The translations under genes and the position numbers were made by a program. 33,830 nucleotides of DNA from a virus: UHGV virus genome UHGV-0322223; one strand, given 5' to 3'. Positions 3,362-32,366 of this stretch are shown here, one piece after another (the first letter of the stretch is position 1; each line of letters begins with the position of its first letter). Below the pieces are notes generated by a model. It ran no database searches. It worked only from the letters and a program-made list of their open reading frames with translations, and was not told the origin of the DNA.

Positions 3362-4555
3362 TTAATCATCTCCTTTTACTTTATATTCTGTTGTTGTTTT
3401 TCCGTTTTTTATTTTTATGATTTTCCTGACGATCGGCTGTTGTAGTCTCGTCCCTGTAATTTCTTCATATCCGCCGACAATATCGCCGATTTCCAAGTCA
3501 ATCCCTTCTACGTTGACGTTGATGCTTTTATAGTTTTGCAGCTCTTTCAGTCGCTTTGTTCCATCCTCTTCCAGCTTTTCTTTGTCCGCGCTCGAAAACT
3601 CATAAACCGCTTCGTTTTCTTCGAGTCCTGTGTAATACGGAGTCTTTCCGACGCTTCCGTCTTTTTGTACGTATAAATGCAGGATGATCCGCTCTTCGTT
3701 TTGTCCTTTTCCGGCGCAGATCAAGTGATTGACACCGCCTCTGTAATCTTTTATGGTAAACTGTACCTCTCCGTCTTGTGGGTATTCCAGTGTTTCCGAG
3801 TAGTCTTTGACTTGTACAGCTCTGATGGAAACATACCCGTAATCAAGGTTTTCCGGCTCAATATAGCTGATCTGCAGGCGATATCCTTGAGTGCTTAACA
3901 TTTTATCGACTGCATCATATAACGTGACGTATCGGTCGATCTGCCAGCCTGTGACGGTGATCCCCGCCTTTTCTTCCGGTACAAAAAAAAGACCGTCGAA
4001 TCGGTCTTTGATAAGTTCTCTCAAGATGTCGTTCAAGTCTCCGCTCACCGTCAGGTGGTCCTCTCCCTCCGGCGGTTCTATGATTTTTTGCTTTAACAGT
4101 CCTCTCCACGTTGTGCCGCACCACACAATTTCTTGCGTTTTGGTCATCACTTCGAGGCTGTTTAGGATTCCGCCGTATTCTGTTCCCGGTACAAAAATGC
4201 GATTTCCGTACCAGTACCATTCTTTTGCCCACTCTTCCTGCGGTAAGCGGATTTCAAAGTCGTCCGTATCTCCAAGATCCATGTCGATCGCAACGCTCTG
4301 ATCTAAAAATCCCAGCTCTTCTCCGTTTTTTCGGGCAATGATAAATTCCAGTGGGAATAGGTCTGCGTTTCGCACGATCAAGTCTCGTGTCTCTTCTGTT
4401 ACTCCGCCATTATCCCCAGTCGCGGTAATCATTACCGGGTAAACCGCTTCTTTCGCTTTCGTTGTCGGCGCGTTTAGTTTTCCTTGGTAGCGATTTTCTC
4501 CGATTTCCGGTAAATTCTGCGTATTCCCGTTTAGCGCTGCTTCCACCCGCTCCAT
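3362..4555 (-). CDS. Tail tip protein Tal-like (gp27-like N-domain; prophage tail family)
   Basis: A 397-aa ORF directly after the Dit-like gene, following the canonical siphovirus order TMP-Dit-Tal. The call rests on synteny plus size. Confidence 0.5.
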   Translation of the reverse strand: MERVEAALNGNTQNLPEIGENRYQGKLNAPTTKAKEAVYPVMITATGDNGGVTEETRDLIVRNADLFPLEFIIARKNGEELGFLDQSVAIDMDLGDTDDFEIRLPQEEWAKEWYWYGNRIFVPGTEYGGILNSLEVMTKTQEIVWCGTTWRGLLKQKIIEPPEGEDHLTVSGDLNDILRELIKDRFDGLFFVPEEKAGITVTGWQIDRYVTLYDAVDKMLSTQGYRLQISYIEPENLDYGYVSIRAVQVKDYSETLEYPQDGEVQFTIKDYRGGVNHLICAGKGQNEERIILHLYVQKDGSVGKTPYYTGLEENEAVYEFSSADKEKLEEDGTKRLKELQNYKSINVNVEGIDLEIGDIVGGYEEITGTRLQQPIVRKIIKIKNGKTTTEYKVKGDD

Positions 4556-5367
4556 CTTGGTTCGCTCCTTTCCTCGTAGATCGTTAAGTCCCAGTCGAAT
4601 TTACCCGACCACACAACTTTTTGTCGTCCGGGCGGGATCTTCTTGAAAAATGTCTTTCCCTTTTCCCTGTTATGAAACGCGTTAACTTTTTCTCCGTTTT
4701 TTGACACTTTCGTAACGGTCCTCGTGCGGCTGTCTATCTCCAACCGCTCTCCTTGCTCTAAAACAATGTTGACCAAATAGCTTTTATCTCCGATGATGAC
4801 TTGAGGGTTTGCAACCGGTCCGTAAATTACAAGTGTAAAATTTACGTCTGTAAAATGAGGGTTTTGGATGTATGTGTTATTCATGCCATTTGCGTAGCGG
4901 CATGGGTAACGCCCGGGGTAGCGTTTATTGTCTGAAGACGATACACCGTAACTGTGAAATGTGTACGGGTTTTCTTTTGTCCATATCGGGCGCGGACAAT
5001 ACAATTTTATTTTATTCTGTGAATAATAGACTGCTATATCCGACGTTTCTGTCTCAGATGATGTTACAAACCCTTCTATGTAATAATCTCCAAAATAAAT
5101 TGTTCCCGGTCTTTTCAGCAAAACATCCGTTTCAAACGCGTCCTGTATTTCATCCAAGAAGGTTTTTCGGTCTTCAAGTGTTCCTCTAATCGTGAAAGTA
5201 ATTTCGTACTCCGCCGCGTCTTTCTCAAAACCTTGTACAGCTTCTCCTATTTTTCTTTTACTCGTTTCCGGCTTCCATGTATGTTTGTGGAAATTTCCGC
5301 TCGTTGCTCTCATTCTCGCATCGTAAAATTTGTATTCTTTCCCTTCCGAATTGATATATCGTATCAT
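4531..5367 (-). CDS. Distal tail protein (Dit)
   Basis: A 278-aa ORF immediately downstream of the tape measure gene. The position and length are typical of siphovirus Dit proteins. Confidence 0.55.
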   Translation of the reverse strand: MIRYINSEGKEYKFYDARMRATSGNFHKHTWKPETSKRKIGEAVQGFEKDAAEYEITFTIRGTLEDRKTFLDEIQDAFETDVLLKRPGTIYFGDYYIEGFVTSSETETSDIAVYYSQNKIKLYCPRPIWTKENPYTFHSYGVSSSDNKRYPGRYPCRYANGMNNTYIQNPHFTDVNFTLVIYGPVANPQVIIGDKSYLVNIVLEQGERLEIDSRTRTVTKVSKNGEKVNAFHNREKGKTFFKKIPPGRQKVVWSGKFDWDLTIYEERSEPRWSGWKQR

Positions 5368-19228: not shown

Positions 19229-19621
19229 CTAGAGGTAGTTCTTCCTTGCGATCTGTTCCCATTCTTTTCGGGTGTGAACCTTTTCAAACTCTGTTTGTGC
19301 GATTTTACAGAGCAGCTCCCTTGTTTTTCGGCTGTTGTGTACTGCCTGCTGCCCCGTTCGATGATGCTCAATGCATAGGTCTACTTTTAACCCGTTTTCT
19401 TCAGATATCGCTCTTTGTCCTGCCCCGAACAGGATATGATGCTCTTCCGTCTGCTTTACGGAATAGTCACCATTTAACCGGGCGCATAAGTAGCAAATGC
19501 CCTTTTGACTGTTTAAAATGCTTTTTTTGTGGATTTTCCGTTTTTTCTTCTTTCTCGGCTTCGGGAAAGCCATGTCCGAATAGTCAATGCTCATCTTCCG
19601 TCTCCTGTGTGTATAACTCAT
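19229..19621 (-). CDS. HNH nuclease, YajD/HNHc_6-like
   Basis: The motifs C.LCARLNG....EEHHILFGAGQRAISEENGLKVDLCIEHH give an HNH with a CxxC...H..H core. Confidence 0.5.
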   Translation of the reverse strand: MSYTHRRRKMSIDYSDMAFPKPRKKKKRKIHKKSILNSQKGICYLCARLNGDYSVKQTEEHHILFGAGQRAISEENGLKVDLCIEHHRTGQQAVHNSRKTRELLCKIAQTEFEKVHTRKEWEQIARKNYL

Positions 19622-20972
19622 GAGTCCCGTTTAGGATCTTTAGTTCTTCCAGTGATCGAAATGAGAACCCCATCTGCTGAAGTAATCTATAGAAGTCTCT
19701 TAGGCATTTCATCCCTTTTTCGTAGTGTCCGTAATAGTCAGTTGCTTCGTACGGCTCTGCCGTCCGGGTCAAGAGGATCAGCATTTGCTTTTCTTGGCTT
19801 ATTTCTGCAAATTCTTTTTCGATCCGTTCTTTTTCCTCTTCTTTCGCTTTGTACGCGTTTTCGATCCCGTAAAATCCATACACCTCGTTCATGTGTGCTA
19901 CGCTTCCGCCGTCCGTTATCCGGTTTATCATGATCTTCCAGCCTGTTTCTTTTACATCAACTTCTTTCGGTATTGTGATTTTTCCCGACACAAGTTCTTT
20001 AATAAAATCGTTCCTTTCCCTTCTCATCCTTTTCAGGATTTCCGTTATTTTTCTTTTGTTTTCCTTGATTTTCTCCGTTTTCTTTTCCTGTTCCGTTTTT
20101 TCCCGCTCTTTTTGTATTACTTTTTTTACTACATAGATCCTATCGTAGTATTGATAATAATAGAGCTGATCTTTTGTGTCTTGCAGATCGATTTTTGTTT
20201 GATCCTCCCACTGTGATAGATCAATATTTGTTATCTCTTTCCATTTTCCGGTCCATCTTTCTTCTTTCGCTCTTTTCGGCGCGGCTTTTACTCCTTTTTC
20301 TTCCAGTATTTCAAACACTATTTGAGCGTTTTTCTTTATTTTTTCTTCTTTCACGGCCTGTTTTGCTTTCCATGCGATTTCGCGTGACGATACTGCAGTC
20401 TTAAGGATTTCATTCCTTTTTTTGATGTCTTGTACCTTCTCCAGCTCGTAAAGGTCCGTTAATGTGAGTTGGAAGTTCTTATTTTCTTCGCGCCTCGTAA
20501 GTGTTTCTTGATCCAGTTTTGCAAGATTTAACCTATGTCGTACTGTACTTCTGCTAAATCCGGTCTTTTCCGCGATTGTTGTTTCTGTTTCTCCCAAATC
20601 CAACATGAGCTGGAATCCTTGTGCTTGCTCGCTTACTGATAGATCGCTGCGCTGCATGTTTTCCAACAACATCGTTGATATTTGCTCTTTTTCCGTCATT
20701 TCCACAACGGAACAGGGCATTGTTTTCAATCCCGCTTTTCTCGCTGCCGTCAGTCTTCGGTTTCCGATCACTACAAGATAGTGGTCTTTTTTGTCCGGGT
20801 TTGGTACTACAGTCAAATTTTGCATTACGCCACGAGCTTTTATGCTTTCCGCCAGCTCGTCAATGTCGGTGTATACCTTCCGCACGTTCTGCGGGTGTAT
20901 GTCTAACTGTTCGATTGCAATATCTTGTATCATATCTGCTCTCCTTTCAGTAATTTTTCCACTTCCCACCAA
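19584..20972 (-). CDS. ParB-like N-terminal nuclease domain protein with a long K/E-rich coiled-coil C-terminus
   Basis: The N-terminus ..IEQLDIHPQNVRKV......LAESIKARGVMQNLTVVP......YLVVIGNRRLTAARKAG matches the ParB/Srx motif (GNRR). The C-terminal 250 aa are low-complexity K/E-rich. Confidence 0.65.
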   Translation of the reverse strand: MVGSGKITERRADMIQDIAIEQLDIHPQNVRKVYTDIDELAESIKARGVMQNLTVVPNPDKKDHYLVVIGNRRLTAARKAGLKTMPCSVVEMTEKEQISTMLLENMQRSDLSVSEQAQGFQLMLDLGETETTIAEKTGFSRSTVRHRLNLAKLDQETLTRREENKNFQLTLTDLYELEKVQDIKKRNEILKTAVSSREIAWKAKQAVKEEKIKKNAQIVFEILEEKGVKAAPKRAKEERWTGKWKEITNIDLSQWEDQTKIDLQDTKDQLYYYQYYDRIYVVKKVIQKEREKTEQEKKTEKIKENKRKITEILKRMRRERNDFIKELVSGKITIPKEVDVKETGWKIMINRITDGGSVAHMNEVYGFYGIENAYKAKEEEKERIEKEFAEISQEKQMLILLTRTAEPYEATDYYGHYEKGMKCLRDFYRLLQQMGFSFRSLEELKILNGTHELYTQETEDEH

Positions 20973-21200: not shown

Positions 21201-21626
21201 TTATGTTAGTTCTTCTCTTAGCAATCCCTGATAATCATTGCTGGCGCAAAAGCGAAATTCCGTTTCGTGTTTCTCCGCTTCCTCAAGGTACATTTTCCAT
21301 AATTCTTTATTTTGGACTTCCGCGCCTGTGGCTTTTTTCCACTCGGATCGCCGCCACTTCTCCGGCGCTCCTTGTTCTGAAATATTTTTGATATAAGCGT
21401 TATCAGTGTGAATTACAACATGACACTGCTCTTTTAATTTTTGTAATGATTTTATGATTGCGATCAGCGTCAATCTGTTGTAAGTAGATTCGCACTCTTC
21501 GCCACTCATGACCCGGTATGCTTCTTCTCCGTTTGACCTAGTAAATACTAGGGCGGATGCGTATTTCCCATCTTTTACAATGGGGGATTTTATGGTGGTT
21601 TCTATGTAGATATTTACTGTTTTCAT
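21201..21626 (-). CDS. RNase H-like protein (RNase HI fold)
   Basis: The sequence aligns to E. coli RNase HI: VNIYIETT..(DGS region), TYNRLTLIAII (TNNRMEL region), HVVIHTDNAY (ILSTDSQY). The first and second catalytic positions appear as E and T rather than D and E. Confidence 0.5.
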   Translation of the reverse strand: MKTVNIYIETTIKSPIVKDGKYASALVFTRSNGEEAYRVMSGEECESTYNRLTLIAIIKSLQKLKEQCHVVIHTDNAYIKNISEQGAPEKWRRSEWKKATGAEVQNKELWKMYLEEAEKHETEFRFCASNDYQGLLREELT

Positions 21627-21627
21627 T

Positions 21628-22389
21628 TTAAATCCTCCTGTGGATTCTGATCAGTGTGTATCTGCGGTATCTCATCCCCGTAGCCGGGTTGATCCCCTCG
21701 TAACTGTTTGCGATGTAATAGCCTTTTTTGGGTTTTACTTCTTTTTGCCAGCGTACAAGTTTTTGGGATTTCGGTTCGGGTAACGGCATATTTTTCGCAT
21801 GGTTGTAGCTTGCTTCTTTTAGTCGCGGTTTTCCTTTGCTTCCGTCCGATCGTTTTTCTCTTGTTTTTTCGTTTTTTGTCATATAGTTTGCCAGTTTTGT
21901 AAAATCCTCATCGTAAAACCGGCTTTTTTTGATCTGCGTAATATAGATTGCTCCGTGTTCCCATGCATCTTCGATCCATTCTGCCGCCCCTGATGTTTTT
22001 TTAATGACTAGATGGATGTGCCATGCACCCTTTGTGCCCCGCTCTATGTTTCTGATCCAGTAAAACGGAGTGTTTGCCTTTTTATATTTCGGACGGAGCT
22101 TTCGGAGTGCTTTTTGTAAGTCTTTTAGTGCCACTGTCATGTCTTTCGGTCTTTGCTCGACTTTGTAGGTGTATGTTACAAAGTAGTCTCCTGCATCAAA
22201 ATATTCGATCAGTAATCGTCTGCATATCTTCGCTCGGTTGGCTTGGTTGACTGCCGCCATCTGTTCCGGCGTCGGTTTCTTTTTCTTTTGCCGTGCCTTT
22301 CCTTTTGCTCCATATCTTCCGTCTGGATATTCCTCTACGTCGTAGACGTCTCCGCCCCGTAATTTGTACGTTTTTCTCCGTGTTGCCAT
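21628..22389 (-). CDS. Rolling-circle replication initiator (HUH endonuclease Rep, pC194/phiX-like superfamily)
   Basis: The three RCR motifs occur in order: FVTYTYK (motif 1), AWHIHLVI (HUH, motif 2) and LANYMTK (YxxK, motif 3). A strongly basic N-terminus is present. Confidence 0.55.
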   Translation of the reverse strand: MATRRKTYKLRGGDVYDVEEYPDGRYGAKGKARQKKKKPTPEQMAAVNQANRAKICRRLLIEYFDAGDYFVTYTYKVEQRPKDMTVALKDLQKALRKLRPKYKKANTPFYWIRNIERGTKGAWHIHLVIKKTSGAAEWIEDAWEHGAIYITQIKKSRFYDEDFTKLANYMTKNEKTREKRSDGSKGKPRLKEASYNHAKNMPLPEPKSQKLVRWQKEVKPKKGYYIANSYEGINPATGMRYRRYTLIRIHRRI

Positions 22390-22455
22390 CTTTTATCTGT
22401 CCTAACTTTAATATCTTTATCGAGGTTTAAAAGCGGGAGTCCCCGCGTGTATCGC

Positions 22456-22484
22456 TTGACTTCCCGCCTCTTATTTGATACAAT
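22456..22484 (+). promoter_or_regulatory. Consensus-like sigma-A promoter TTGACT-N17-TACAAT overlapping the dso hairpin
   Basis: TTGACT lies at 22456-22461, the spacer is 17 nt, and TACAAT lies at 22479-22484. It would fire rightward toward a terminator about 40 nt downstream. Confidence 0.35.
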
Positions 22485-22508
22485 ATATTTGTCCTAACAA
22501 GAGGCGGG
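22463..22508. promoter_or_regulatory. Candidate double-strand origin (dso) nick-site hairpin
   Basis: A perfect 10-bp inverted repeat CCCGCCTCTT...AAGAGGCGGG has a 26-nt loop containing TCTTATTTGATACAATA. This loop closely resembles the pC194/pUB110/phiX174 nick region TCTTATCTTG^ATA. It lies 75 bp upstream of the Rep start codon. Confidence 0.45.
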
Positions 22509-22553
22509 AACGCCATCTTTTAAGCGCATCAGTTGCTGTGATGCGCTTTTTTT
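22491..22553 (+). ncRNA. Candidate short transcript (about 60 nt) from the promoter to the terminator; possible Rep-control countertranscript or origin RNA
   Basis: The promoter at 22456-22484 is followed by a strong terminator at 22522-22553, with no ORF between them. Confidence 0.25.
22522..22553 (+). terminator. Rho-independent terminator
   Basis: A 10-bp perfect stem AAGCGCATCA / TGATGCGCTT with a 7-nt loop, followed by TTTTTTT. Confidence 0.65.
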
Positions 22554-22688
22554 AATTGATTACATATGTACCGCCGCGCTTTTTTTGCTTTTCGCGCGCA
22601 TACGCTTCGACTTCCGATCTGGTCATTGCCTTGCACTCTAATGCGTACGGATCTCCCCAGCGGATGATCCACAAAATAACTTCTTCTT

Positions 22689-22934: not shown

Positions 22935-22984
22935 CTTTACAAATTCCTTTCTTTCCCGTACAATAATCTTGGTTGTTTATCTAT

Positions 22985-23016
22985 GCGTCCTAGAGGTTGC
23001 CGCCTCTTATGGGCGC
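22985..23016 (-). promoter_or_regulatory. Conserved two-tier hairpin downstream of paralog A
   Basis: The structure is GCGTCC-TAGAGG-ttgccg-CCTCT-tat-GGGCGC. The inner stem AGAGG/CCTCT differs from the copy-2 inner stem TGAGG/CCTCA by a compensatory pair. Confidence 0.4.
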
Positions 23017-23213
23017 TTTTTTGTTCTGTGAACGTCAAAGTCTTCGCGATTGCCTATGTTTCCCCACGATGTGATCTGATCGTTTTTTGTAAGTACAACT
23101 GCGTCTGTATAATCCTGATCGTATTTCAGACACCATTCTTCAAGCAGTTCTAAGATGCAGTTCATTTCTTCTTCGGCATCTTTCTTTACCTCTTCGTCCA
23201 TTTCTTTGTTCAC
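23007..23213 (-). CDS. Small acidic protein, paralog A (68 aa)
   Basis: MNKEMDEEVKKDAEEEMNCILELLEEWCLKYDQDY..., about 85 percent identical to the 23869-24075 product. Confidence 0.5.
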   Translation of the reverse strand: MNKEMDEEVKKDAEEEMNCILELLEEWCLKYDQDYTDAVVLTKNDQITSWGNIGNREDFDVHRTKKRP

Positions 23214-23292: not shown

Positions 23293-23801
23293 TACTCAAC
23301 GTATTTTCTATTTCCTACTTCGTTTTCATCCTCTTCAAATCTGAGTTCCATCAGGTCTGCCAGCATCAGGTATTCTTGTGCCTTCTTTGTTTCTCCGTGT
23401 GTCTCCCGGATCTTATCCCGGAACTGTGCAAGCGTCCCGTAGAAGCATCCGCACCGCACACCCACGCCGCCATCTTTGAGACGGAAGAAGGTCGTTGTAC
23501 GGTTGACAGATCCGAAACCGTGAGCGTATGCATAGTCCCCATTGCCGCACACCCGCGCATCGCCGGAAACCTGTGCATCTCCGTACACCAGCGCATTGCC
23601 GGAAACCTGTGCATTGCCGGAAACCCACGCATTGTCGTACACCCACGCATTGTCGTCATGACCAAGGTTTGATTCCTTCTCCACATACCCGCCAAGTTCT
23701 CCGGCTTCCACATCGCCGAACTCAACAAGGGCACGGATGCGGAACAGCTTTGTCCCGAACATATTTGTTACAAATTCATTTGTTAATTCAAATTTCTTCA
23801 C
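23292..23801 (-). CDS. Hexapeptide-repeat (left-handed beta-helix-like) protein, GTG start
   Basis: A 169-aa ORF with repeats NAWVYDNAWVSGNAQVSGNALVYGDAQVSGDARVCGNGD. SD AAAGGA lies upstream of GTG. The DNA shows an 18-bp tandem periodicity at about 23520-23650. Confidence 0.5.
   Translation of the reverse strand: MKKFELTNEFVTNMFGTKLFRIRALVEFGDVEAGELGGYVEKESNLGHDDNAWVYDNAWVSGNAQVSGNALVYGDAQVSGDARVCGNGDYAYAHGFGSVNRTTTFFRLKDGGVGVRCGCFYGTLAQFRDKIRETHGETKKAQEYLMLADLMELRFEEDENEVGNRKYVE
23520..23650. repeat. Imperfect 18-bp tandem repeats (about 7 copies) encoding the hexapeptide repeats
   Basis: gcattgccggaaacctgt and its variants are repeated. This leaves all six frames open, which explains several overlapping ORF-track entries. 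Confidence 0.6.
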
Positions 23802-23845
23802 TTTTCTCGTCCTTTCTGTTACAATAATGTTGATTATTTATCTAT

Positions 23846-23878
23846 GCGCCCTGAGGTTGCCGCCTCATTTATGGGCGC
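23846..23878 (-). promoter_or_regulatory. Conserved two-tier hairpin downstream of paralog B
   Basis: The structure is GCGCCC-TGAGG-ttgccg-CCTCA-tttat-GGGCGC. Confidence 0.4.
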
Positions 23879-24075
23879 TCTTTTGTTCTGTAAACGTCAA
23901 AATCTTCGTGATTGCCTATACTTCCCCACGATGTGATCTGATCATGTTTTACAAATACAGCCGCGTTTGCATAATCCTGATCGTATTTCAGACACCATTC
24001 TTCAAGTAGATCTAAGATGCAGTTCATTTCTTCTTCGGCATCTTTCTTTACCTTTACATCCATTTCTTTGTTCAC
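23869..24075 (-). CDS. Small acidic protein, paralog B (68 aa)
   Basis: It is about 85 percent identical to paralog A at the protein level. Confidence 0.5.
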   Translation of the reverse strand: MNKEMDVKVKKDAEEEMNCILDLLEEWCLKYDQDYANAAVFVKHDQITSWGSIGNHEDFDVYRTKERP

Positions 24076-26084: not shown

Positions 26085-26771
26085 GTGAATATAATAGTGG
26101 ATTTCAAAAATATAATATTAGCTCTTCGCAATGAAAGAGGGTTTAGTCAAGAGCAATTAGCTAAAGTTCTTCATGTTTCTAAAAGTACCGTTGCTATGTG
26201 GGAGACAGGTCAACGTCTTCCAAGTGTTGAAAAATATGAAGAAATTGCTGATTATTTCAATGTTGATATGGATTTTCTTTATGGTCGAACCTCTATAAAG
26301 AGGAGAGCTCTATTTGATGAATCCGGTTCTGAATATGTAAATAGTAAACTTGTTACTAGCATTTCACGCAAAAATCAAGGTATTATAATTAACGTTCTCG
26401 GTCGTGTTGCTGCCGGTATCCCGATCGATGCCGTTACCGATATTATAGATACAGAAGAAATCTCACTGGAGATGGCTCGAACTGGTGAATTCTTCGGGCT
26501 TCAAATCAAGGGTGACAGTATGGAACCCAAAATTTCCGACGGCGATGTCGTGATCGTTCGGCAGCAAAACGACGCCGAAAGTGGGGATATTGTAATCGCT
26601 ACAATAAACGGGGACGAGGCTACTTGTAAAAGGATTAGAAAATACCGAGACGGTATAGAACTTGTTTCAAGTAATCCTTGTTACGAACCTATGTTCTTTT
26701 CAAATGAAGAGATAGAAAATAAGCCCGTAAGAATTATCGGGCGAGTTGTTGAGTTAAGAGCTAAATTTTAA
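26085..26771 (+). CDS. CI-like repressor, LexA-type: XRE HTH plus S24 peptidase (autocleavable)
   Basis: The HTH is LRNERGFSQEQLAKVLHVSKSTVAMWETG. The cleavage-site context is RVAAGIP, the Ser nucleophile is in GDSMEP, and the Lys is in TCKRIRK. The start is GTG (26085), with an alternative GTG at 26097. Confidence 0.85.
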   Translation: MNIIVDFKNIILALRNERGFSQEQLAKVLHVSKSTVAMWETGQRLPSVEKYEEIADYFNVDMDFLYGRTSIKRRALFDESGSEYVNSKLVTSISRKNQGIIINVLGRVAAGIPIDAVTDIIDTEEISLEMARTGEFFGLQIKGDSMEPKISDGDVVIVRQQNDAESGDIVIATINGDEATCKRIRKYRDGIELVSSNPCYEPMFFSNEEIENKPVRIIGRVVELRAKF

Positions 26772-26975: not shown

Positions 26976-28151
26976 TTATGCTGCTCTATGATAAAGCTGC
27001 CCTGACTTTTCTAGTTGGTAAATAACCCTGACCAGTTTCTTGGCAGCATGGGATATGGCAACATTATAGTGTTTGCCTTCGGAACGCTTCTTTGCAAGAT
27101 AAGCAGAGAACTGATTATCCCAAATGCAGACAAATTTTGTCGCATTAAACAGCGCATAGCGGAGGTAACGGGAACCACGCTTTTCCATGTGAGAATAACA
27201 GCCGTCAAGCTGACCTGATTGGTAAGTAGAGGGAGAAAGTCCTGCATAGGCAAGTATCTTGTCAGGGGAACTAAAACGGTTGAAGTCGCCAATCTCAGCA
27301 ATGATCATCGCACCCATTCGGTAATTGATACCGGGGATGGAAAGAATTGGAGAGCGGATTTCGTCCATAATGGATTTAATGGAGCATTCTATTTCATCAA
27401 TCTCAGAAGTTAATTCCTGAATAAGCCGAATTGTGTGCTTTAGTTCAAGAGATTTTGCAGGCATATTTGAACCGATGGAATGTTTGGCGGCATTTCGGAT
27501 TTCTATGGCTTTTTCCTTATTGTAGTGTCCCTTAGAAGCATTCGCCAGCAGATTTGTGAGGCGAGTCAGATGGCATGAAGCAATCTGAGCAGAAGAAGGA
27601 AACTCGGCTAAGAGTGCGTATATAGAAACCATGTGAAGACTAGGAACAAGTTTTTCCAGTTCAGGGAAAAGGATGTTAACAAGGCGTGAGATAGAAGTTT
27701 TCAGTTTTGCTCGTTCTTGTACTTTATCAAACCTGTATCTGGTTAATGACTTAAGCTCTTCGTTGTGATAAGATGTGTTTGAGTAGGACTGTAAGTTTAC
27801 TCCAGACATCATCATAAGAGCAATCGTATGGGCATCCACTTTATCGGTTTTTGTCTGTCTAAGGCTAAGACTTTTACGAAACAGATTGGTATGCAAAGGG
27901 TTGATGACAAAGGTGGGGAGACCTTTATCAATGAGAAAACCTAACAGATTGTAATTGTAGTGTCCGGTAGCTTCCAGTCCTACTTTTACGTTAGAAAAAT
28001 CATTTGTTAAGGAAGAAATCTTTTGAAAGAGGTCATGGAAACCATCCGCATTGTTTGGAATAGTAAATGCGTTAAAAAGCACTTCTCCTTCTGAGTTTGT
28101 GATAAAACAATCGTGTTTGTCTTTTGCAACATCAATACCAATATAAATCAT
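26976..28151 (-). CDS. IS110-family transposase / recombinase (DEDD)
   Basis: A 391-aa ORF with N-terminal MIYIGIDVAKDKHD..., typical of IS110/IS1111 transposases. Its GC content is distinct from its flanks. Confidence 0.85.
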   Translation of the reverse strand: MIYIGIDVAKDKHDCFITNSEGEVLFNAFTIPNNADGFHDLFQKISSLTNDFSNVKVGLEATGHYNYNLLGFLIDKGLPTFVINPLHTNLFRKSLSLRQTKTDKVDAHTIALMMMSGVNLQSYSNTSYHNEELKSLTRYRFDKVQERAKLKTSISRLVNILFPELEKLVPSLHMVSIYALLAEFPSSAQIASCHLTRLTNLLANASKGHYNKEKAIEIRNAAKHSIGSNMPAKSLELKHTIRLIQELTSEIDEIECSIKSIMDEIRSPILSIPGINYRMGAMIIAEIGDFNRFSSPDKILAYAGLSPSTYQSGQLDGCYSHMEKRGSRYLRYALFNATKFVCIWDNQFSAYLAKKRSEGKHYNVAISHAAKKLVRVIYQLEKSGQLYHRAA

Positions 28152-28495: not shown

Positions 28496-29209
28496 ATGAG
28501 GTCATCGGAAATAAAAAAAAGAGCTATAAAAACCCTTAATGAGCTGCTTGAAGCACACATTAAAAAAGCACCTGAAGACAGCACAACAGAAAACGATTCC
28601 CATCTCAAAAAAATAAATCTGCTTTCGTATTGGATCAATACATATTGTAGATTTATTAAAAAAGAAAAAACATTTGATGCTTCAAAAAATAAAGTATACA
28701 AAAGAGGTGAAATTATTCAAGTTGACCTAGGCTTTCGTATTGGTCATGAAGAAGGCGGATTGCATTATGCGGTTGTTTTAAATAAAAAAGACTCCCCTTA
28801 TTCCGATATATTAACCGTACTTCCTCTTTCATCTAAAAAAGAATATACCACACCTAATAAATTCACTATTGATTTGGGAAACGAAATATATGATAAGCTC
28901 CATCAAAAGTATATGCAAAAATTCAATAATTCAATTCAAGATGTGAAAGTATCGCCAAATCCGGTGTATGCCGGAGAGAAAATAACGATAGCTTTTACAG
29001 TAGATACAACGGAAGCCGATAAGGTGCAAAAAGAAATTGATTTAATGAAAACTGGAAGCATTGGCTTAGTTTCTCAAATCACAACAATTAGCAAAATACG
29101 AATAACAAAACCTTTGCATTATTCCGATGCTTTTGCAGGTATAAAATTAAGCGATGAAAGTTTAAATATAATAGATAAAAAAATCTGCGAATTATATATT
29201 GGTAAATAA
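28496..29209 (+). CDS. MazF/PemK-fold domain protein with an N-terminal extension and an approximately 80-aa insertion
   Basis: RGEIIQVDLGFRIGHEEGGLHYAVVLNKKDS...ILTVLPLSSKK ... GLVSQITTISKIRITKPL aligns to the MazF beta-strands (GDLIWVDFDPTKGSEQAGHRPAVVLS..CVPCTTQ..ADQVKSIAW). The region is AT-rich. The ATG has a poor SD. An A8 homopolymer lies at 28514-28521, and an out-of-frame 25-aa ORF with a better SD starts at 28461. Confidence 0.5.
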   Translation: MRSSEIKKRAIKTLNELLEAHIKKAPEDSTTENDSHLKKINLLSYWINTYCRFIKKEKTFDASKNKVYKRGEIIQVDLGFRIGHEEGGLHYAVVLNKKDSPYSDILTVLPLSSKKEYTTPNKFTIDLGNEIYDKLHQKYMQKFNNSIQDVKVSPNPVYAGEKITIAFTVDTTEADKVQKEIDLMKTGSIGLVSQITTISKIRITKPLHYSDAFAGIKLSDESLNIIDKKICELYIGK

Positions 29210-30833: not shown

Positions 30834-32366
30834 ATGTCTTATTTTATTTATGCTCGTAAATCAAGGAAGGATGCTGATCTCGAAGCGTTGGGAATCGATG
30901 TGCTCGAGCGCCATATCACCACTTTGCTGGAGCTTGCCAAAACGCTGTTGCTTCCGATCGGGGCAATTTATCGCGAAGTCGTCTCCGGCGACAGTATTGA
31001 TTCCCGCCCGGTGATGTCTCAAGTGATGGCCGAAGTAGAGTCTTGTATGTGGGACGGATGTCTTGTTATGGACGTTGACCGCCTCGCCCGCGGAGATACG
31101 ATCGATCAAGGGCGGGTACAGCGTGCATTTTTCTACTCAAACACAAAGATCGTTACTCCTAACAAGACGTATGATCCGGCAAACGAGTACGATAACGAAT
31201 ACTTTGAATTTAGTCTGTTTATGAGTCGCAGAGAATACGCAACAATTAAGCGCAGGATGCAGCGTGGCAGAGAACGAAGCAGCTCTGACGGATATTATGT
31301 CGGAAATATACCGCCCTACGGATGGCGTCGCGTTATCGCTCCTGATGGTAAGCACTTCTCTCTTGCTCCCGATCCAACCGAATCCCCCGTGCTCGATCTG
31401 ATGTATGATCTATGCGGCAATAAACAATACGGTTATCAAAAAGCATGTACTCATATGGCCGAAATGGGAATTTTATCAAGAAGCGGACGCCCGTTTACGC
31501 CGTCCACGCTAAAAGGAATTATATCTAATCCGGCAAATATCGGAAAAGTTCGCTGGGGACATCGGAAAACGGTTCGTACGGTCAAAGATGGGAAAATTTC
31601 TCGTTCTCGCCCGCACTCGTCAGATTATATTCTTGCCGATGCAGTTTGGCCGCCCCGGATCAGCGCGGACCTTTTCCAGCGTGCCAACCAGCCAAAAGGG
31701 AGCTGCTCCGCTCCGGTGCGTGATGACAGACCGATTCAGAATATTTTTGCCGGTCTTGTCCGGTGTTCCCAGTGTGGCCGGCTGATGGTTCGTAAAAAAG
31801 CGCATACTAAAACGCCTTATGACATTCTGATTTGTCAATATACTGAATGCCCTACAGTCGGTATCCGAATTGATGAGTTAGAGCTCGCCTTGTTGGAATG
31901 GCTGCGGAATTACATAGATAAATACGAGCTCACTGACGCGTTGCCCGAAGACGTGGAGAACGTCGCTGCAAAAGAAGCGATTGTTAAGAATTTTGAAAAA
32001 GAACATGAAACGCTTTTAAAGCAACGTGAATCCCTTTTTGATTTTCTCGAGCAGGGTATCTATACGAAGGAAATTTTTATCGAGCGGTCAAACGCTCTTG
32101 AGCGACGCGTAAAAGAATGTATGGAGCACATTATCTCCGCGCAGAACGACCTTCACGCCACACTCGCACTACAGGCAAACCGTAAAAATTTCGTTCCGCG
32201 CTGTAAGAATTTGCTCGGCGAATGGGGTAGACTTACAATTCCCGAAAAGAACAGCGCTTTAAAGGTTTTAATTGAAAAAATCATGTTCACAAAGACAAAA
32301 CGAAACAAAAAGGGGCAGGATCGTTCTGATTTTGAAATTGATGTGTTTCCAAAAGTGCCGAAATAG
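30834..32366 (+). CDS. Large serine recombinase (phage integrase)
   Basis: A 510-aa ORF. The N-terminal resolvase domain has the catalytic Ser in FIYARKSRKD and the ..VMDVDRLARG motif. It also has a recombinase domain, a Zn-ribbon (CSQCGRLMVRK...C), and a C-terminal coiled coil. SD AGGAGTG is present. Confidence 0.85.
   Translation: MSYFIYARKSRKDADLEALGIDVLERHITTLLELAKTLLLPIGAIYREVVSGDSIDSRPVMSQVMAEVESCMWDGCLVMDVDRLARGDTIDQGRVQRAFFYSNTKIVTPNKTYDPANEYDNEYFEFSLFMSRREYATIKRRMQRGRERSSSDGYYVGNIPPYGWRRVIAPDGKHFSLAPDPTESPVLDLMYDLCGNKQYGYQKACTHMAEMGILSRSGRPFTPSTLKGIISNPANIGKVRWGHRKTVRTVKDGKISRSRPHSSDYILADAVWPPRISADLFQRANQPKGSCSAPVRDDRPIQNIFAGLVRCSQCGRLMVRKKAHTKTPYDILICQYTECPTVGIRIDELELALLEWLRNYIDKYELTDALPEDVENVAAKEAIVKNFEKEHETLLKQRESLFDFLEQGIYTKEIFIERSNALERRVKECMEHIISAQNDLHATLALQANRKNFVPRCKNLLGEWGRLTIPEKNSALKVLIEKIMFTKTKRNKKGQDRSDFEIDVFPKVPK

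Follow-up and report, generated by a model that had tools for sequence, protein, structure and literature searches.

A HUH rolling-circle replication locus in a temperate tailed phage, with a candidate origin and a predicted antisense RNA gene upstream of rep

The locus considered here lies in UHGV-0322223, a virus genome of 33,830 nt (hereafter the window, meaning the whole stretch of DNA analyzed) that is a temperate tailed phage, and it comprises the gene for a HUH-type rolling-circle initiator (Rep) together with the control region upstream of it. The closest described systems are found among small plasmids and among phages. The pC194 double-strand origin (TCTTATCTTGATAATA, NC_002013) and the phiX174 origin (CAACTTG^ATATTAATAAC, annotated at 4306) were both verified to contain the nick sequence CTTG^ATA, and in pC194 this sequence lies upstream of rep on the rep-sense strand. 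The A protein of phage P2 sets a precedent for HUH nicking and rolling-circle replication in a tailed temperate phage with double-stranded DNA (dsDNA); it belongs to Phage_GPA and its origin is inside its own gene. HUH Reps of Myoviridae have been recorded, so that such initiators are already documented in tailed dsDNA phages (PMC6668415). In origins of the pC194 family the nick need not be in a hairpin loop (PMC5037232). Origins for rolling-circle replication (RCR) are said to combine a bind site with a nick site (PMC5714925); in pT181 these are IR-III, which confers specificity, and IR-II, in which the nick lies. Control by a countertranscript RNA (ctRNA) is exemplified by RNAII of pMV158, which is built of a 5' tail, one hairpin and a U-tail and prevents repB from being translated (PMC4485353). 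Set beside these systems, the present locus appears from its sequence to be a HUH rolling-circle module with countertranscript-like control in a tailed phage, and its conserved box and predicted antisense RNA are both previously undescribed.

Rep is a protein of 253 aa encoded at 21628..22389 on the minus strand, with motif I (FVTYTYK), motif II (HIHLVI) and motif III (YMTK) in that order, as the first-pass annotation of this DNA had recorded. It matches Pfam PF23343 (REP_ORF2-G2P) over residues 68-173 with 52.4 bits against a cut-off of 27.8 (E = 6.7e-14) and phrog_3584, 'replication initiation protein' (4e-55). Residues T72, T74, Y75, H124, I125, H126, Y169, T171 and K172 do not vary among 23 homologs that are 57-66% identical, and the tyrosine and histidine positions of all three motifs are thereby conserved. 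An AlphaFold (AF2) model built on the homolog alignment has a mean predicted local distance difference test score (pLDDT) of 85.3, and its best Foldseek matches in the PDB are HUH nucleases (SIRV1 ORF119, AAV Rep, circovirus Rep and IS608 TnpA); the matches are weak, with a best E of 4.6e-3 (none <= 0.001) and TMq of 0.2-0.3, and a PDB sequence search with Rep gave no relevant match. The family matches and the invariant motifs, with a predicted fold that appears HUH-like, identify Rep as a HUH rolling-circle-type initiator, as had been proposed. Its closer affiliation is another matter: the Rep_1 hidden Markov model (HMM; PF01446) finds no match to Rep at E <= 1, the Phage_GPA HMM (PF05840) finds none either, and hhalign assigns probabilities of 0.2% to an alignment with pC194 Rep and 0.1% to one with phiX174 gpA. 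Comparison with HMM families thus confirms a HUH family and does not extend to Rep_1. Both pC194 Rep and phiX174 gpA match PF23343 above its cut-off; because this domain is shared while matches to Rep_1 and Phage_GPA are absent, Rep is related to the pC194/phiX group at the level of the domain and is a member of neither family. The single tyrosine in motif III recalls pC194/pUB110, in which the HUH initiator likewise has one catalytic tyrosine in a Y-x-x-K motif, and differs from phiX174 gpA, which uses two.

Upstream of rep, a perfect 10-bp inverted repeat (CCCGCCTCTT / AAGAGGCGGG, 22463-22472 / 22499-22508) had been reported, with a Rep nick site in its loop. The repeat is real and longer than that, with perfect 12-bp arms (TTCCCGCCTCTT / AAGAGGCGGGAA, 22461-22472 / 22499-22510) around a 26-nt loop, and folded as RNA it is stable far above chance (-32.1 kcal/mol, z = -9.1). 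What the hairpin holds is more likely the promoter of a conserved small antisense RNA than a nick site. A predicted sigma-70-type promoter occupies 22456..22484 on the plus strand, with a -35 element TTGACT (22456-22461), a 17-nt spacer and an extended -10 element TGaTACAAT (22476-22484), and it scores 10/12 with TG in a promoter scan. The loop string TTGATACAAT is this extended -10, and the TTGATA taken for the nick (22475-22480) is its TG plus the beginning of the -10. The spacer of the promoter makes up one arm of the repeat, and nt +9 to +20 of the antisense RNA make up the other; the loop contains the -10, the start site and the first 8 nt of the RNA, which copy the Rep Shine-Dalgarno (SD) region.

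Comparison with other loci points the same way. In a set of 83 non-redundant regions upstream of Rep homologs (30-100% protein identity), a strict TTGACN-17-TAnnnT promoter is found on the antisense strand at the equivalent site in 67, where the Rep-sense strand has none and shuffled sequences give 0.26; nearly all loci have a 17-nt spacer, and the -10 varies among TACAAT, TATAAT, TATACT and TACTAT. All that the loop retains is TAnnnT, 17 nt away from TTGAC, and TTGATA is lost in homologs from 65% protein identity down. Within the window TTGATA occurs 32 times (25.7 expected) and pC194-like 13-mers with <=2 mismatches occur 8 times (6.1 expected), so that the resemblance of the loop string to a nick site is within chance. 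The nick-like string TCTTATTTGATACAATA itself is present, but its TCTT is part of the stem and it carries a 1-nt deletion relative to pC194. The assignment of TTGATA as the Rep nick site is accordingly not supported: the string is unconserved even at 65% identity, and the antisense promoter that is conserved there has its extended -10 at this very place.

The hairpin is retained among homologs with 61 distinct arm sequences in 67 loci (median z 2.9) and with loops of 8-44 nt. RNAalifold on MAFFT alignments, whether of the whole leader or of the segment from GTCAAG to the box described below, predicted no pairs, since the stems shift by 1-3 nt and their sequences are wholly different; tests of position-defined cognate against non-cognate duplexes were therefore used. 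With arms set by position only, complementarity averages -14.4 kcal/mol for cognate pairs and -8.6 kcal/mol for unrelated pairs (p = 1.3e-10, a value that, like those below, is optimistic for loci sharing a phylogeny). For this hairpin, and for the small G+C hairpin described below, comparison of the loci indicates that structure is conserved and sequence is not.

The RNA predicted to start in the loop runs from 22491 to 22555 on the plus strand, about 65 nt, antisense to the Rep leader. It would consist of a free 5' tail (GUCCUAAC), a small stem, a terminator hairpin at 22522-22548 (10 bp, followed by T7) and a U-run; its fold of -24.8 kcal/mol (z = -4.0) leaves the 5' tail single-stranded, and there are no plus-strand open reading frames (ORFs) between promoter and terminator. 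A promoter and terminator bounding an antisense RNA of 54-79 nt are paired in 67 of the 83 loci. Of the mismatches in terminator stems, 13 form G.U pairs when read on the antisense strand and 2 when read on the Rep-sense strand, a bias that is the signature of selection on the antisense transcript. These features delineate a predicted small RNA gene of about 65 nt opposite Rep, 65-165 nt upstream of its ATG, with a near-consensus sigma-70 promoter and an intrinsic terminator. The cultured phage phiCs5676-1 carries the cassette too, as does a Latilactobacillus phage. In phiCs5676-1 (OR574845.1, 1320-1430; locus L197) a 36-aa hypothetical ORF, CS5676_0051, is annotated over the antisense-RNA and hairpin region and probably reflects a miscalled gene. 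Among Rfam families none attains its gathering score with the RNA; the best match is an unrelated miRNA model (E = 0.37).

A direct repeat, TGTCCTAAC, had also been noted. Both of its copies are real, and each belongs to a longer repeat of 13 nt in which one position is mismatched (22394-22406 / 22486-22498); a second exact repeat, the 11-mer GCCATCTTTTA, lies at 22385-22395 / 22512-22522. The upstream copies (TATTTGTCCTAAC at 22486-22498 and GCCATCTTTTA at 22512-22522, together spanning 22486..22522 on the plus strand) reproduce the ribosome-binding and start-codon region of Rep inside the antisense RNA, a placement that does not support a role in the origin. The 5' tail GUCCUAAC (nt 1-8) is complementary to GUUAGGAC at the Rep SD, and nt 22-32 are complementary to positions -6..+4 around the Rep AUG, giving exact complements of 8 nt (SD) and 11 nt (AUG) in the window. 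The arrangement recurs in other lineages with sequences of their own: locus L041 repeats CGGGATGGC, and L040, L043, L049, L166 and L069 have complements of 12-13 nt. Pairing between the small RNA and the Rep start is stronger for cognate than for unrelated loci (p = 1.6e-5 to 2e-4), a modest effect.

The predicted RNA resembles pMV158 RNAII as a small RNA opposite rep whose 5' tail is single-stranded and whose terminator hairpin ends in a U-tail, and, in the window, also in that the tail is complementary to the rep translation-initiation region (PMC4485353). It differs in that its gene lies about 90 nt upstream, outside the Rep initiation region, so that the SD and AUG would be reached through short duplicated segments and in some lineages only; it also matches no Rfam ctRNA family. 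A conserved CopG-like partner was not found, the upstream genes of the window being rarely common to homologous loci. As to the leader itself, a conserved leader peptide was considered and rejected: the frame reaches 20 codons or more in only 26 of 67 loci, and in 21 it is shorter than 5 codons or missing altogether. The window does contain a 29-codon ORF in the minus-strand leader (22427-22523), with its ATG (22516-22514) at the duplicated AAAAGATGGC and its TAA in the T-run after the small hairpin.

The second principal element is a 26-nt box, CTCGATAAAGATATTAAAGTTAGGAC, at 22399..22424 on the minus strand, just upstream of the Rep ATG. Its consensus, ACT(T/C)GATAAAGATATTAAAG(T/A)TAGGAC, is found at the same place in 78 of the 83 loci, in most of them 29-38 nt ahead of the ATG, on the strand of rep sense; 38 loci have the variant CTTGATA and 20, the window included, CTCGATA. 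Mean pairwise identity is 84% in the box, 77% in the DNA encoding the invariant HUH motif and 45% in the 27 nt just upstream, which makes the box, abutting the Rep ribosome-binding site, by this comparison the most conserved DNA of the locus. At least 17 of its positions are nearly invariant down to 30% protein identity. The box is unique within the window, and its exact 19-nt core occurs 112 times in viral contigs, 84 times directly upstream of a Rep homolog, nearly all of the others being in-frame coding coincidences for the peptide LDKDIK. In most homologs the box carries CTTGATA, the pC194 nick heptamer, and as in pC194 it is upstream of rep on the rep-sense strand; the replicon here is a 34-kb tailed phage and not a small plasmid, no single-strand origin was identified in it, and the box of the window has CTCGATA. 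The phiX174 origin shares ACTTGATA and GATATTAA with the family consensus ACTTGATAAAGATATTAAAG, but it lies inside gene A, whereas the box is upstream of rep and in a double-stranded genome of the tailed-phage type. By analogy with these origins the box is a candidate double-strand origin that would unite nick and recognition site, with a putative nick at CTCG^AT between 22421 and 22420. The proposal of a pC194/phiX-type nick sequence may thus have been the right idea, with the site at 22399-22424 on the other (minus) strand. In one IMG/VR contig (L310) an intergenic box core, CTTGATAAAGATATTAAAGATAC, lies at 1745 on the reverse strand and is followed by a 173-aa ORF that is no Rep homolog by HMM; this arrangement could represent a diverged initiator or a displaced origin.

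Between the antisense RNA gene and the box, 4-8 nt upstream of the latter, lies a small G+C hairpin (GCGGG-GACT-CCCGC, then TTTT) at 22429..22446 on the minus strand, with a folding energy of -9.7 kcal/mol (z = -3.4) in the window. Homologous loci have a hairpin at this fixed position (median free energy -11.7, 79% with z < -2) with 47 distinct stems, and the complementarity of its arms is specific to the cognate locus (p = 9e-9). The distance from GTCAAG (the -35) to the box is near constant, the whole segment measuring 44-46 nt in most loci. Because TTTT follows directly, in the window and in about half of the loci, the small hairpin could attenuate Rep-sense transcription; it could be a Rep-sense attenuator or terminator, or part of the origin. 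An outer stem GTCAAG/CTTGAT, seen in several minimum-free-energy folds, was discarded, as loci with CTCGAT show no compensatory change.

Taken together, the region is probably a phage replication cassette, made up of the HUH Rep, an RNase H and a structured control and origin region, in which the box is nicked and the antisense RNA restrains Rep. Rep would be produced from the early operon and, by analogy with pC194 and phiX174, would nick the box on its Rep-sense strand, at CT(T/C)G^ATA, priming unidirectional rolling-circle synthesis through rep and then through the remaining genome. The antisense RNA, expressed from a constitutive promoter, would base-pair with the mRNA leader of the early operon in the manner of countertranscripts of the pMV158 RNAII type. 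In the lineage of the window, its 5' tail (anti-SD) and nt 22-32 (anti-AUG) would pair with the Rep ribosome-binding site, and the nickase would stay untranslated unless early transcription exceeded the RNA, for example upon induction. Most simply, the inverted repeat would then be a structured target that offers a complementary loop to the 5' tail of the RNA.

Several observations weigh against this cassette reading. The analogy with the pC194/phiX nick crosses families, given that Rep lacks a match to Rep_1 or Phage_GPA, and the box of the window has CTCGATA and not CTTGATA. The 3' end of the box includes the Rep SD (AGGA, 22400-22403), and on account of this overlap its conservation could in part be due to translation or RNA pairing and not to nicking. 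An exact complement of at least 7 nt between the small RNA and the Rep start region exists in only 22 of 67 loci and the pairing is strong in about one-third of lineages, so that it is lineage-dependent. In a wobble test of the strand of action, mismatches in the big hairpin number 21 A:C and 10 G:T, an ambiguous split that does not show selection of this hairpin as Rep-sense RNA; it may act in the Rep-sense mRNA, in single-stranded DNA or as a cruciform. An attenuation switch between the two hairpins was set aside as too weak, at p = 0.03 for 3' arm against 3' arm and p = 0.06 for 5' against 5', and the relatedness of the loci makes all p-values flattering. Finally, the whole model is built by comparison: the nick position, expression of the RNA, the direction of regulation and any role of RNase H are inferred.

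Among the alternatives, the inverted repeat may instead act at the level of DNA, as a lineage-specific 'bind' locus for Rep, possibly a cruciform, beside a universal nick box, its overlap with the promoter being incidental or additional. The variety of its arms (61 variants) beside the universal box would suit the description of RCR origins as bind plus nick sites (PMC5714925), and so would the wobble counts, which show no G.U enrichment on the Rep-sense strand. Loop lengths of 8-44 nt argue against a dimer on duplex DNA, while a cruciform is still compatible with them; moreover, the inverted repeat is tied to the RNA gene, its one arm being in all cases the promoter spacer and its loop in all cases the place of the -10 and start site. 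A function in DNA is unlikely, though not negligible.

It is a shade less probable that the box is only a signal for translation or RNA pairing, or an operator for autoregulation by Rep, and that the true origin is elsewhere, for example within rep, as with gene A of P2 and phiX174. The box includes the SD and sits in the mRNA leader, the small RNA is complementary to its 3' half in some lineages, and the phiX174 origin is indeed inside gene A. RNA-RNA pairing would, on the other hand, permit co-variation, and yet the near-invariant positions of the box hold down to 30% protein identity; its 5' half, CTYGATAAAGATATTAA, is unnecessary for ribosome binding; and the box persists in Butyrivibrio phage Arawn, where inspection by eye revealed no antisense promoter.

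A third possibility is that the antisense unit is a single-strand origin (sso): the displaced Rep-sense strand would fold, RNA polymerase would make a primer for the lagging strand, and RNase H would process or remove it. On the displaced strand the unit does directly precede the candidate nick, the position that ssos occupy in RCR plasmids (PMC5037232), and RNA polymerase primes ssos of the pT181 type (PMC5714925); the polarity of the RNA would suit priming on the Rep-sense strand, and Rep and RNase H are conserved together. The complete duplex-type sigma-70 promoter and canonical terminator nevertheless fit an ordinary gene, and in loci whose box has CTCGAT the -35/box pairing TCAAG/CTTGA is not restored by a compensating change. 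Primers at ssos are usually about 20-45 nt long, and, to judge from P2, a dsDNA phage of 34 kb has no need of an sso to couple lagging-strand synthesis; both points tell further against an sso, which is improbable here. A single antisense RNA might also do two jobs, serving as a lock on the nickase in the lysogen while, after induction, it or its promoter on the displaced strand would give a primer that RNase H processes; this is slightly less improbable than an sso pure and simple and, if true, would constitute a combined double-strand origin, sso and ctRNA unit not described for tailed phages. The model of the first-pass annotation, in which the extruded 12-bp hairpin exposes TTG^ATA in its plus-strand loop as a hairpin-loop origin in the style of pT181/pMV158 with pC194-like sequence, can be given hardly any credence: the repeat is very stable, the loop string resembles pC194 TCTTATCTTGATA with one deletion and the big-hairpin mismatches lean to wobble on the plus (antisense) strand (21 vs 10), but homologs from 65% identity down keep TAnnnT exactly 17 nt from TTGAC in place of the loop TTGATA, the frequency of TTGATA in the window is at chance, and CTYGATA on the opposite strand is far better conserved.

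The cassette reading also draws on the gene that follows. Rep is encoded within a leftward early operon and is followed by RNase H and then by a ParB-like protein. The type 1 RNase H gene (21201..21626, minus strand; Pfam RNase_H 1.3e-12, phrog_531 8e-31) is directly 3' of rep, and an RNase H homolog has this position in 62 of 73 non-redundant loci, with a median gap of 42 nt, while other neighbors differ. Rep and RNase H hence look like a conserved functional unit, and since RNase H usually follows Rep where other neighbors vary, the mobile unit appears to be made up of small RNA, hairpins, box, rep and rnh together. Relative to P2, the locus has an initiator of another family, a candidate origin upstream of the gene, and in addition the predicted antisense RNA and the RNase H partner. 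The ParB-like protein of the early operon (462 aa, ParB_N plus helix-turn-helix, 19584-20972, minus strand) is present in only 5 of 73 homologous loci. GC skew in the window tracks gene orientation and gives no origin signal at 22.4 kb.

Elsewhere in the early region, two further promoter-to-terminator units on the plus strand, at 22936-23026 and 23797-23888, are 89% identical to each other and about 55 nt each, with fold z of -3.2 and -3.5. They overlap the 3' ends of paralogous 68-aa genes on the minus strand (23007-23213 and 23869-24075, respectively) and are candidates for additional antisense small RNAs. The identification of the element as a tailed temperate phage is supported: the window encodes portal, large terminase, major head, tape-measure and minor tail proteins, together with a CI/LexA-like repressor, a large serine integrase (30834-32366) and an endolysin. 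With a complete structural module present and nothing satellite-like in the window, the suggestion of a satellite-like strategy has no support. A transposase-like gene (26976-28151, minus strand; phrog_2199, 9e-75) lies downstream of the gene for the CI-like repressor (26085-26771) and ahead of a MazE/MazF-like gene (28496-29209), and is probably an insertion sequence (IS) element inserted in the lysogeny region. A search of the window for tRNA genes found none.

An RCR initiator had been regarded as unusual in a tailed phage and as plasmid-like. At least 956 protein clusters match the Rep family at E <= 1e-5, the cluster of the window's own Rep protein alone holding 1067 sequences, and the family has 443 confirmed hits among IMG/VR contigs and 84 among GTDB genomes, mostly Lachnospiraceae; these contig and genome relatives were found by an alignment-based scan, a single-protein scan having given none. 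Members are also present in cultured tailed phages, among them phiCs5676-1 and the Butyrivibrio phages Arawn and Idris. The plasmid collection yielded a single weak match, at 4689-5081 of NZ_CP124276.1 (Paraclostridium sordellii, 33.9 kb; 28% identity); as a 34-kb replicon with a phage-type Rep, this may be a phage-plasmid or episomal prophage. By these counts the Rep family is abundant in Lachnospiraceae phages and nearly absent from plasmids. Given the size of the family, its occurrence in cultured tailed phages, its near absence from plasmids and the HUH Reps already on record in tailed phages, neither description can be upheld.

Few replication modules are commoner than this Rep family among temperate Lachnospiraceae phages of the human gut; existing records label the protein only 'replication initiation protein' or 'hypothetical' and leave its control region unannotated or covered by a mis-called small ORF, as in phiCs5676-1. 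If the RNA is real, the annotation of these phages should exchange such spurious small ORFs for a noncoding RNA. The box and Rep could supply a compact pair of origin and initiator for genetic tools in Clostridia. For the phages themselves, the box, the antisense RNA and the Rep-RNase H pair could explain how a site-specific nickase is kept silent in the prophage and how replication starts.

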